A DNA stretch of 2,691 bases from a virus (Duplodnaviria; Heunggongvirae; Uroviricota; Caudoviricetes). Location of the stretch: the IMG/VR virus record IMGVR_UViG_2872185964_000012, one strand, 5' to 3'. The translations under genes were made by a program, and so were the position numbers. The notes under the pieces were generated by a model. That model did no database searches. It was not told where the DNA came from and worked only from the letters and a program-made list of their open reading frames with translations. Positions 1 through 2,691 of the stretch are shown in pieces. Position 1 is the stretch's first letter. Each line of letters opens with the position of its first letter.

Positions 1-12
1 CTGTACTCCAAT

Positions 13-31
13 GACTAGTCTAAAAACTAGT
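13..31. repeat. Palindrome GACTAGTC (13-20) overlapping a direct repeat of the palindromic hexamer ACTAGT (14-19 and 26-31)
   Basis: Read directly from the sequence. Together with feature 40-59 this gives three dyad elements within 60 bp. Confidence 0.3.
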
Positions 32-39
32 ATTAAGAC

Positions 40-59
40 TATCACTTATTTAAGTGATA
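40..59. repeat. 20-bp inverted repeat TATCACTTA-TT-TAAGTGATA (9-bp arms, 2-bp spacer); candidate protein-binding site, function unknown
   Basis: Read directly: 40-48 TATCACTTA is the reverse complement of 51-59 TAAGTGATA. It lies in a 30% GC stretch upstream of the degenerate tfa. Confidence 0.4.
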
Positions 60-92
60 CTGGTTGTCTGGAGATTCTGGGGGCCAGTCTAG

Positions 93-635
93 TTGCATTT
101 AAAAAATATTACTGCGGGTAATCCGAAAACTGCGGAACAATACCAGATGACAAAAAAATATGATATTACCTAGCTTTTTTCGGAGGACGACAAAAACTGG
201 TATGAAGAACTGAAGAATTTCGCCAGCGACACAATTAAAATAGCTTACACCGGAGACGGGCGCGTGGTGTGGGTCGGTAAGGATGTGACAGGCATTGAAC
301 CCCGTAACGCCAGTGTTATTGAAGTTCCTGATATTACCGCCAACCGCCGCATTACCGCGCCGGGTTACTGGTTTTACCGCAATGATGAATTTGTCTTTGA
401 CTACAGACTCAAAGCGGAAGATGAGCGTGATGCCCTTCTGGCTCAGGTCAGAGCCCGGACAGGGGAATGGGAAGAAGACCTGCTGCTGGGGTTAATCAGC
501 GACGAAGATAAAGAAAAGCTGAAAGCCTGTCGTATTTACGCGAAATCGCTGCAGGCGATGGATTTCAGCACCATCACAGATAAAGCCACATATAACGCCA
601 TCAACTGGCCGGAGCGTCCCGATGCCGCAGCTTAA
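93..635 (+). pseudogene. tfa: Tail fibre assembly protein (Tfa, P2 G / Mu U / e14 TfaE-like), 5' end degenerate; only the C-terminal 123 codons (264-635) form an intact ORF
   Basis: Frame-3 translation from TTG 93 reads [42 protein letters not shown]...VIEVPDITANRR... This matches the conserved Tfa N-terminal signature as I recall it (MQHLKNI..NPKTKEQY..DGKNWYEE..VVEVPDIT.NRR). The codon before TTG is TAG (90-92) where homologues have ATG. An in-frame amber TAG sits at 171-173, at a position I recall as Trp in homologues. The frame is uninterrupted from 174 to the TAA at 633-635; the ORF track starts it at GTG 264. A G5 run (79-83) lies 9 nt upstream of TTG 93. Confidence 0.6.
611..614 (+). 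promoter_or_regulatory. Shine-Dalgarno (GGAG) for the side tail fibre gene
   Basis: GGAG at 611-614 lies 7 nt upstream of ATG 622, inside the 3' end of the upstream tfa (14-nt gene overlap). Confidence 0.5.
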
Positions 636-2025
636 AGGTGTGATTAAAACGCCCACGGGAGAACCGCTGGACGGCGCAACCATTACACTAACCTCCATAC
701 ACAACCGTGCAGGGATTCTGAAAAGTGTTTTCAGCCATGTCACCACACAGAACGGGAATATGACTTCCCCGTTCTGCCGGGTGTGTACAGCGTTCGCCTG
801 ACACAAAGCACACGGCGCCTTTCAGAAATCGGTGTCATCCGCGTTTATGAAGATTCAACGGACGGTTCGCTGAATGATTTTCTGGGCGCAACTAATATTG
901 ACCTGCGTCCGGAATCCCTGAAGAAATTCGAAGAGCTGGCGCAACAGGCGCAGCAGAGTGCCGGGAGCGCAGCCGGAAACGCACGGCAGACGGCGCAGGA
1001 TGTGACGGCAGCCGCAACGGCCCGTGATGATGCACAACGTTTTGCGGAGAAAGCCCGACAGGATGCAACCGTCACAGCTGAGAACAGAAAGGCCACTGCG
1101 GAAGATGTGACAAGCACAGGAGCAAATGCAGCCGCAGCCGGACAGAGCGCACAGGATGCCGCAGGTTATGCCCGCGCAGCAGAACAGGCCAAAAATGACA
1201 TTGATGCTGCGCTGACCGGCACTCTGAAAATGGCTAACCATCTGTCAGAAATCGCAGCAGCAGGCGAAAAGGCACAACAGAAGTCCCGGATAATCTGGGG
1301 CTGAAAAGTGCGGCCACGATGGAAGCACAGAGCGACATTTACGACCGGACAAAAGGCCGTCTGGCGATACCCGGCGCATTCGGCTTTGGGTGTGCTTTTC
1401 TGCCTGAAGATGTTATCCGTTTTGACACTAAGAGTGATTTCCTGGCCTGGGTAAGGAATGCGCTGCCAGGTGAATATTCCGTTGCTGGCCCTACGACATC
1501 ATCATACCCGACACACGGTTTGAAGGGGTGCTCAGCATCCGGTGGACTGATGCACGCCCTGAGACAACAGAACCGCGGTACAGAGCCAAATCCCTTACTT
1601 TTTACGGCATTAACGGCCCCATTTATCACACCCGCTACTGCTACTGGCCCATATCCAGACTGACTGGCTGGGTGAAAATAAATATAACCACAGAAGATAT
1701 TATTTACAGAATCGTGGCGAGCTCTGTCCGCAACAGATGGGGAGACCCTGACATTGGCGGGCTGATTATTGCTGCGTACCAGGGAGAAGCTGACGGTGAT
1801 AAAGTCATCAGACTTGTCAGGAGGCAGTCATACAGAGGCTCACGACTGGGACCGGTGGGGATCTCAGTGCCCAGTACTCCCACCGGAACGTATATAGCAT
1901 CCCCACAATTTTTCATTACGGGATGTTCAGAGCATTCATTACCGGGGTCATATTGCGCCCTGTCCGGGGTGCCGGATGCACATGTCTCTGGCGCAATGCC
2001 CGGGCTTTTTATTCGCACATCGTGA
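622..2025 (+). pseudogene. stf: Side tail fibre protein (lambda Stf-like), reading frame interrupted three times as sequenced (true pseudogene or single-base homopolymer miscalls)
   Basis: ATG 622 with GGAG RBS. Frame 1 (622-801) gives MPQLKGVIKTPTGEPLDGATITLTS..., resembling the lambda Stf N-terminus (MAVKISGVLKDGTGKPVQNCTIQLKA from memory). Frame 3 (open from 648; ORF 783-1304) gives ...YSVRL...IRVYEDSTDGSLNDFLGA..., matching lambda Stf ...YSVIL...ITVYEDSQPGTLNDFLGA, followed by an Ala/Gln/Thr-rich shaft. Frame 2 (open from 1238; ORF 1319-1663) gives PDNLGLKSAATMEAQSDIYDRTKGRLAIPGAFGFG... Frame 1 (open from 1474; ORF 1528-2025) continues to TGA 2023-2025. Each switch is a -1 shift, and each overlap interval (648-801, 1238-1304, 1474-1663) contains short G or C runs, e.g. 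GGG 754-756, CCC 1285-1287, CCC 1489-1491. Confidence 0.75.
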
Positions 2026-2041
2026 GGAATGCACCGTGTAA

Positions 2042-2599
2042 ATTAAAAAAATCATTAATCCCCGTTATACCGAAAGTGGCGCAGTAGACTGTGACGTTTT
2101 TTTTGACGACAGGGACCAGGCAGTCCCCTACACAGCCACCGCTGATGATGTCGCTCCGACGGGTCAGCAAATCTGGCAGGAACTGCAAAGCGGCAAATGG
2201 GGTGAGATAGCCCCATTCACTGTGACACCAGAAATGCTGGAAGCGGCCAGAGAGGCCAGACGTCAGGAAATTGAAGCATGGCGCGCAGAACAGGAGGCGA
2301 AGCCGTTCACGTTTGAATGGAACGGTCGTATCTGGAATGCTGGTCCCGACTCACTGGGCCGCCTGTCCCCGGTAGTCATGCTGGCAAAATCTGTCACAGC
2401 ACAAACACATATGGCGTGGAGCGATGCCGATAATCAGCAGGTGAAACTGTCGATGCCGGAACTGGAAGAACTGGCGGCAGCAATGGTGCAGGCGCAGGTC
2501 GATCGCAACGATGAGATTTATCGCCGTCAGCGTGAAATGAAAGAGGAGCTGAGCGGTCTGGATGATTTGGCTTCAATTCGGGCGTTTGACGTTGAGTAA
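2042..2599 (+). CDS. tfa: Tail fibre assembly protein (Tfa), second copy of a different family; start codon uncertain (ATT 2042, or GTG 2222 as in the ORF track)
   Basis: Frame 2 is open from just after TAA 2039-2041 to TAA 2597-2599 and reads IKKIINPRYTESGAVDCDVFFDDRDQAVPYTATADDVAPTGQQIWQELQSGKWGEIAPFTVTPEMLEAA...LSMPELEELAAAMVQAQVDRNDEIYRRQREMKEELSGLDDLASIRAFDVE. The position immediately 3' of the fibre gene, the size (~185 aa) and the composition fit a fibre chaperone. There is no ATG, GTG or TTG in frame between 2042 and 2221. GAGG at 2024-2027 is a possible SD. Confidence 0.7.
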   Translation: MKKIINPRYTESGAVDCDVFFDDRDQAVPYTATADDVAPTGQQIWQELQSGKWGEIAPFTVTPEMLEAAREARRQEIEAWRAEQEAKPFTFEWNGRIWNAGPDSLGRLSPVVMLAKSVTAQTHMAWSDADNQQVKLSMPELEELAAAMVQAQVDRNDEIYRRQREMKEELSGLDDLASIRAFDVE

Positions 2600-2691
2600 T
2601 GAATAAGCCGCAACTGGCGGAATCACAGAAGACCGCTTTGCTTACCGAAGCGGAGTCTGTCATCCGGCCGCGGGGCGTGCTGTCAGGCTGA
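2599..2691 (+). CDS. Hypothetical small ORF (30 codons visible), translationally coupled to tfa; product unknown
   Basis: ATG 2599-2601 overlaps the tfa stop (TAATG). It translates to MNKPQLAESQKTALLTEAESVIRPRGVLSG and ends with TGA at 2689-2691, exactly at the window edge. It is below the ORF-track length cutoff. No family recognised. Confidence 0.25.
   Translation: MNKPQLAESQKTALLTEAESVIRPRGVLSG

Follow-up and report, generated by a model that had tools for sequence, protein, structure and literature searches.

The DNA analyzed here (2,691 bp, hereafter "the window," numbered from its first base) is an exact substring of a 20-kb piece of the Shigella boydii chromosome CP026872.1 (4.71 Mb; assembly GCA_002950295.1), occupying positions 9738 to 12428 of that piece (locus L004). 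It opens with one end of an IS2 element and continues with the body of a tail fiber assembly gene (tfa), a second tail fiber gene, a gene encoding a DUF4376 protein, and a short open reading frame (ORF) that runs off the end of the window. The prophage that houses the tfa gene is an ipaH-associated, degraded myovirus remnant in S. boydii. Its nearest IS-free relatives are carried by three EIEC-like E. coli chromosomes, which share 95 to 98% identity with window positions 92 to 2691. Intact relatives display the gene order baseplate genes, fiber, tfa (181 amino acids [aa]; Caudo_TAP), fiber 2 (468 aa; phage_tail_N), DUF4376 (207 aa as annotated), and ipaH, with the ipaH effector gene on the strand opposite to that of the tail module. 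Across complete E. coli genomes, no match to window positions 92 to 300 exceeded 94.3% identity, and hence no sister allele was found there. The nearest deposited phage is phiP27, which is related only distantly. A surprisingly close match, given a Pasteurellaceae host, was also observed in "Actinobacillus phage vB_Apl-pPE4" (PP818812.1, positions 42833 to 43333), whose tail fiber assembly gene is 88% identical at the DNA level to window positions 92 to 592.

The gene body at positions 93 to 635 (plus strand) encodes a Caudo_TAP protein homologous to phage Mu gpU, comprises 181 codons when intact, and lacks its ATG and ribosome-binding site here. The residues past an in-frame amber codon match the family profile (PF02413, Caudo_TAP; E = 5.5e-27), and the reconstructed protein aligns from residue 1 with a solved member of the family, the Mu tail fiber assembly protein U (PDB 5YVQ; E = 8.3e-37), such that profile and structure agree on a Caudo_TAP protein of the Mu gpU type. 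Intact 181-aa homologues are 81 to 90% identical, and 105 of the 120 best homologues are exactly 181 aa long. Nearly all of these 120 sequences (117) begin with MLHLKNI, and a start of the form M(L/Q/M)HLKNI is shared with P2-type Tfa and Mu gpU, which bears out an earlier proposal that Tfa homologues begin with an ATG followed by (Q)HLKNI and shows that the family conserves this N terminus. The initial annotation had also named two patterns that would speak against decay, namely, homologues that naturally carry the codons seen in this copy and homologues that start downstream; among the best 120 homologues, neither pattern applies. One candidate for a natural truncation, a 162-aa S. flexneri "Tfa" present in 524 contigs, was rejected, since the DNA of strain 2457T has an intact ATGTTGCAT...TGG. 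Two other S. flexneri strains differ from 2457T by 1 nucleotide (nt) in an A-run of tfa: at approximately position 5955 of loci L013 and L014 (CP058589 and CP102215), the run AAAAAA (codons 5 and 6) is one base shorter. The shortened run frameshifts the first 19 codons, and gene callers consequently start at Met20, giving the 162-aa form; the missing base could reflect genuine decay or be one more homopolymer error. The shorter database forms of Tfa are contig-edge partial sequences, start-calling choices, or A-run indels.

In contrast to its intact relatives, the S. boydii copy contains no uninterrupted ORF of approximately 175 to 181 codons with a start of its own: the ATG is absent, and codon 28 is TAG. 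At the 5′ end, positions 90 to 107 read TAG TTG CAT TTA AAA AAT, where intact relatives read ATG TTG CAT TTA AAA AAT ... ACC TGG CTT. The cause of the first difference lies immediately upstream. Window positions 1 to 91 (minus strand) are the left end of IS2 (IRL side), position 91 being the last base of the element. This segment matches an IS2 end found in 4,464 of 5,426 E. coli genomes and stands in the same register as the annotated IS2 end at locus L002, ...GGGGGCCAGTCTA. The complete element spans positions 8498 to 9828 of L004 (exactly 1,331 bp; two mismatches relative to the L002 copy) and carries orfA (121 aa) and orfB (301 aa), both of which are open, lie on the minus strand pointing away from tfa, and contain HTH_Tnp_1 and rve domains. 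These two transposase ORFs overlap as in IS2 of the IS3 family, for which programmed frameshifting is a family trait and would be expected here by analogy, and the 1,331-bp length coincides with the terminal sequences TGGATTTGCC... and ...GGCCAGTCTA. A 5-bp direct duplication also flanks the element, GTTGC on both sides in L004, just as ATGAC lies on both sides of the L002 copy. In L004 the flanks read ...TAACAATGTTGC / IS2 / GTTGCATTTAAA, and the junctions read ...TATTTAACAATGTTGC / TGGATTTGCC...(IS2)...GGCCAGTCTA / GTTGCATTTAAAAAAT. The left inverted repeat has a one-base variant 16 nt from the terminus (window position 76), reading GATTCTGGGGG compared to GATTCAGGGGG in the L002 copy.

The right-hand copy of the target-site duplication (GTTGC, positions 92 to 96, plus strand) corresponds to nucleotides 3 to 7 of tfa as it read before the insertion (ATGTTGC), and base 92 is the first base at which the window is homologous to the IS-free relatives. 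IS2 is inserted after nucleotide 7 of tfa, duplicating GTTGC. The apparent stop codon at positions 90 to 92 is composed of the terminal TA of IS2 and G92 of the old ATG, while the original stop codon of fiber 1, a 2-nt spacer, and the tfa ATG all survive beyond the element, 1.3 kb upstream. The start codon was therefore not lost by substitution, as had been proposed when only the downstream flank was considered, but displaced by the insertion. Likewise, the view that the lesions are substitutions rather than indels holds for the TAG at positions 171 to 173 but fails for positions 90 to 92, which form the junction of a 1,331-bp element. This junction had no match in an exact-pattern scan of species-representative genomes, and a 36-aa ORF spanning it is encoded by no gene on record. 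Our literature search on IS2 ends and target duplications returned only work on IS26. Five IS families, IS2 among them, have expanded in all Shigella species, and these expansions have been tied to widespread pseudogenization (PMC7373316).

The second lesion within the gene is an in-frame amber codon at positions 171 to 173 (plus strand), arising from TGG by a G-to-A transition in the middle base. Counting from TTG 93, it is codon 27, equivalent to Trp28 of the intact protein. This residue is present without exception in the close homologues (120/120) and is also conserved in P2-type Tfa (39% identity) and phage Mu gpU (PDB 5YVQ). TGG is found at this position in VL40, O121, RMDEC465, and four S. 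flexneri loci. Alignment to intact relatives thus upholds the TGG-to-TAG change that the initial annotation placed at codon 27. When compared to intact orthologues, the gene therefore carries disabling lesions at positions that the family conserves, as expected of a pseudogene.

The gene neighborhood is disrupted as well. In intact relatives tfa lies directly downstream of its client fiber gene; here it does not. To the left of IS2, the fiber 1 gene is reduced to its last 162 bp (L004 positions 8327 to 8488, matching L001 positions 3835 to 3996), and the baseplate genes and most of fiber 1 are missing from L004. Homology to the universal E. coli gyrA flank ends at L004 position 8320, and the phage remnant joins the gyrA 3′ flank approximately 111 bp past the gyrA stop codon without an intervening IS. 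The suspicion that this is the decayed chaperone of a replaced or truncated upstream fiber cassette gained support from this arrangement: upstream there are only IS2, a 162-bp fiber stub, and the gyrA 3′ flank, and the 3′ 162 bp is all that was found of a partner fiber gene. Because GTTGC is preserved on both sides, IS2 arrived by simple transposition, and this event was not what deleted the fiber gene. An IS2-mediated adjacent deletion was rejected as the explanation for fiber loss on the same grounds, and also because the fiber and gyrA sequences meet 171 bp left of the inserted IS2, at a joint that contains no IS.

The gyrA 3′ flank and the fiber stub meet at L004 positions 8321 to 8326, where no IS is present. 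On the other side of the remnant are ipaH and then genes for a lactonase, a LysR-family regulator, and a PrpF-family protein, which we take to be the pgl-ybhD-ybhH region, far from gyrA in E. coli K-12. If this mapping is correct, the remnant marks a large chromosomal rearrangement. The gyrA gene itself (L004 positions 5583 to 8209) was called as two ORFs (267 and 590 aa), most likely an assembly indel and not a genuine disruption.

Downstream, a second tail fiber gene of the phage_tail_N type (positions 622 to 2025, plus strand) overlaps the tfa stop codon and contains apparent frameshifts at positions 753, 1287, and 1488. All three are single-base deletions in G/C runs that are missing from every short-read contig covering them (among L005 to L011), and correcting them yields an uninterrupted ORF of 468 codons. 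The three frameshifts are probably long-read consensus errors in CP026872.1, the gene being intact in reality. A further single-base deletion in a G/C homopolymer run, relative to E. coli relatives, was observed at window position 2671. The DUF4376 gene that follows (PF14301; positions 2036 to 2599, plus strand) is the putative partner of fiber 2 and carries an early nonsense change, GAA to TAA, at positions 2039 to 2041, which is also present in short-read contigs L005 to L008. This TAA is codon 22 according to the RefSeq-style annotation in VL40, or codon 2 if translation starts at GTG 2036, which is preceded by a GAGGA motif (positions 2024 to 2028). As judged from these codons, the presumed partner of fiber 2 is predicted to be knocked out too, which supports decay of the cassette.

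Taken together, these observations make it highly likely that positions 92 to 635 represent a nonfunctional tfa pseudogene of the Mu gpU type, with two lesions of its own and a deleted client gene. Three independent lesions, given here in no order of time, underlie this reading. IS2 moved into tfa after nucleotide 7, leaving the Shine-Dalgarno sequence and ATG 1,331 bp from the gene body; as a by-product, the terminal TA of IS2 and the duplicated G form a chance in-frame TAG. A G-to-A change, seen in the CP026872.1 assembly, turned the invariant Trp28 codon from TGG into TAG. The client fiber gene is deleted save for its last 162 bp, the stub being fused, with no IS between them, to the 3′ flank of gyrA, and nothing is left of the tail module upstream. 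Given these three lesions, no functional chaperone would be made, and the tfa remnant would persist only as decaying DNA beside the retained ipaH effector gene. We infer that this decay proceeded under relaxed selection, against a well-documented background of IS expansion and pseudogenization in Shigella.

The decay reading has to be weighed against residual expression from within the gene. A residual ORF of 123 codons (positions 264 to 635, plus strand) begins at a GTG that encodes Val59 of the intact protein, and gene callers label it "tail fiber assembly protein [Shigella boydii]." It could give an N-terminally truncated 123-aa chaperone whose C-terminal helical domain would act on a client such as the downstream fiber, although we regard this as quite improbable. 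The ORF is open to the natural stop codon, a GGAG (positions 252 to 255) lies 8 nt upstream of the GTG, the product keeps most of the Caudo_TAP match (E = 3.2e-23), and the fragment is translatable in principle from a read-through transcript. In an AlphaFold2 model of the closest intact homologue, the C-terminal helices (residues 105 to 155) are predicted with confidence, with the N-terminal domain modeled poorly (pLDDT 35 to 60). The downstream fiber, a conceivable client, is probably intact after error correction, and its own DUF4376 partner has an early stop. However, intact homologues have the same GGAG and GTG bases as part of their conserved T-G-D-G-R-V codons, and a start at 264 occurs in none of the best 120 homologues nor in the other cluster members examined. 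The fragment would also be without residues 1 to 58 of the N-terminal domain, and the N-terminal domain of Mu Tfa has been reported to bind the fiber (PMC9608196). Furthermore, the client fiber gene of this Tfa is gone, and fiber 2 in intact relatives is followed by its own DUF4376 gene rather than by tfa.

No sigma-70-like promoter was detected in window positions 1 to 700, where an antisense IS2 lies upstream of the gene; the 20-kb locus contains no tRNA genes; and no Rfam match that would point to an RNA element was obtained on either strand. Neither of the two routes to a product left open by the initial annotation, truncation at GTG 264 or amber suppression, gained support from these searches. 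A more specific form of the idea, in which the 123-residue fragment, containing the conserved helical trimerization region, would be a minimal stand-alone chaperone expressed by read-through for the downstream fiber, appears remote.

We also considered that the amber codon might be an artifact of base calling or consensus building in the long-read assembly, with IS2 as the sole real 5′ lesion. The TAG allele is found in one long-read assembly only (CP026872.1), which has at least three homopolymer deletions in the 2.7-kb window that are missing from short-read assemblies and in which gyrA, an essential gene, is likewise broken into two ORFs. The allele was not recovered a second time in exact- and degenerate-pattern scans of species-representative genomes, in JGI metagenomes, or in E. 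coli searches. Seven short-read contigs from related isolates (L005 to L011) begin at window positions 235 to 261, past position 172, presumably because the conserved 5′ region of tfa is repeated in those genomes. Against an error, however, every known error of the assembly is the loss of one base from a G/C run, whereas the TAG is a substitution in a nonhomopolymer context (CCTGGCTT), and the assembly differs from the seven short-read contigs by only 0 to 1 substitution per 1.2 to 2.1 kb. In addition, short reads bear out TAA 2039, the window's second nonsense substitution. Since the errors of this assembly are homopolymer deletions with few substitutions, and since TAA 2039 was confirmed, we take the amber codon to be very probably real in the CP026872.1 strain and consider a sequencing error very improbable.

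That a suppressor tRNA reads the amber codon to give a near-full-length chaperone initiated at TTG 93 is scarcely credible: TTG is a usable bacterial start codon and is preceded, at a distance of 9 nt, by GGGGG (positions 79 to 83, within the IS2 end), but suppression alone would leave tfa without its ATG and ribosome-binding site, the 20-kb locus lacks a tRNA gene as well as a client fiber gene, no promoter-like site was detected, and nothing points to a natural amber suppressor in this strain.

Accepting the pseudogene reading, the intact form of this gene resembles known systems closely. It is homologous from residue 1 to phage Mu U (TfaMu, 5YVQ) and P2/Mu-type Tfa, with 39% identity to the Tfa of Yersinia phage P37, and shares with them the M(L/Q/M)HLKNI start and the WL(F/W)SEDxKNWYEE block. 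The position of tfa directly 3′ of the fiber gene in intact relatives is likewise that of Mu/P2-type Tfa. Unlike these proteins, the S. boydii copy is predicted to be unable to make protein, its start having been severed by IS2, Trp28 replaced by an amber codon, and its client deleted. The cryptic prophages of E. coli K-12 similarly retain tail fiber and chaperone remnants inactivated by truncation, IS elements, or point mutations. The remnant described here differs from those in being a different prophage (ipaH associated, with a phiP27/Mu-like tail module) in a different host lineage, S. boydii, with lesions specific to that lineage. The insertion is also like the gene disruptions by IS2 known from EIEC and Shigella genomes (Hawkey et al. 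2020, PMC7373316), consisting of a full-length 1,331-bp element, a 5-bp duplication, and an interrupted coding sequence; the only oddity relative to those cases is that the site lies 7 nt into the ORF, such that the end of IS2 passes for a start codon changed by mutation.

The biology is thus already known, namely, ordinary prophage gene decay in Shigella driven by IS elements and point mutations, and its weight is small, adding one further case. The locus nevertheless illustrates three cautions for annotation. First, an IS terminus beside a coding sequence can mimic a point-mutated start codon when the downstream flank alone is visible. Second, long-read homopolymer errors can make an intact neighboring gene appear frameshifted. 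Third, a residual ORF of 123 codons may still be annotated as a tail fiber assembly protein.

At the end of the window, between DUF4376 and ipaH, a short ORF (MNKPQLAESQKTALLTEAESVIRP...; positions 2599 to 2691) runs on in L004 to approximately position 12520 and corresponds to L001 positions 6514 to 6690. It resembles the C-terminal half of a Mu/P2-type Tfa and, by this resemblance, looks like a third Tfa fragment. The VL40 prophage, intact in other respects, has the same ORF.
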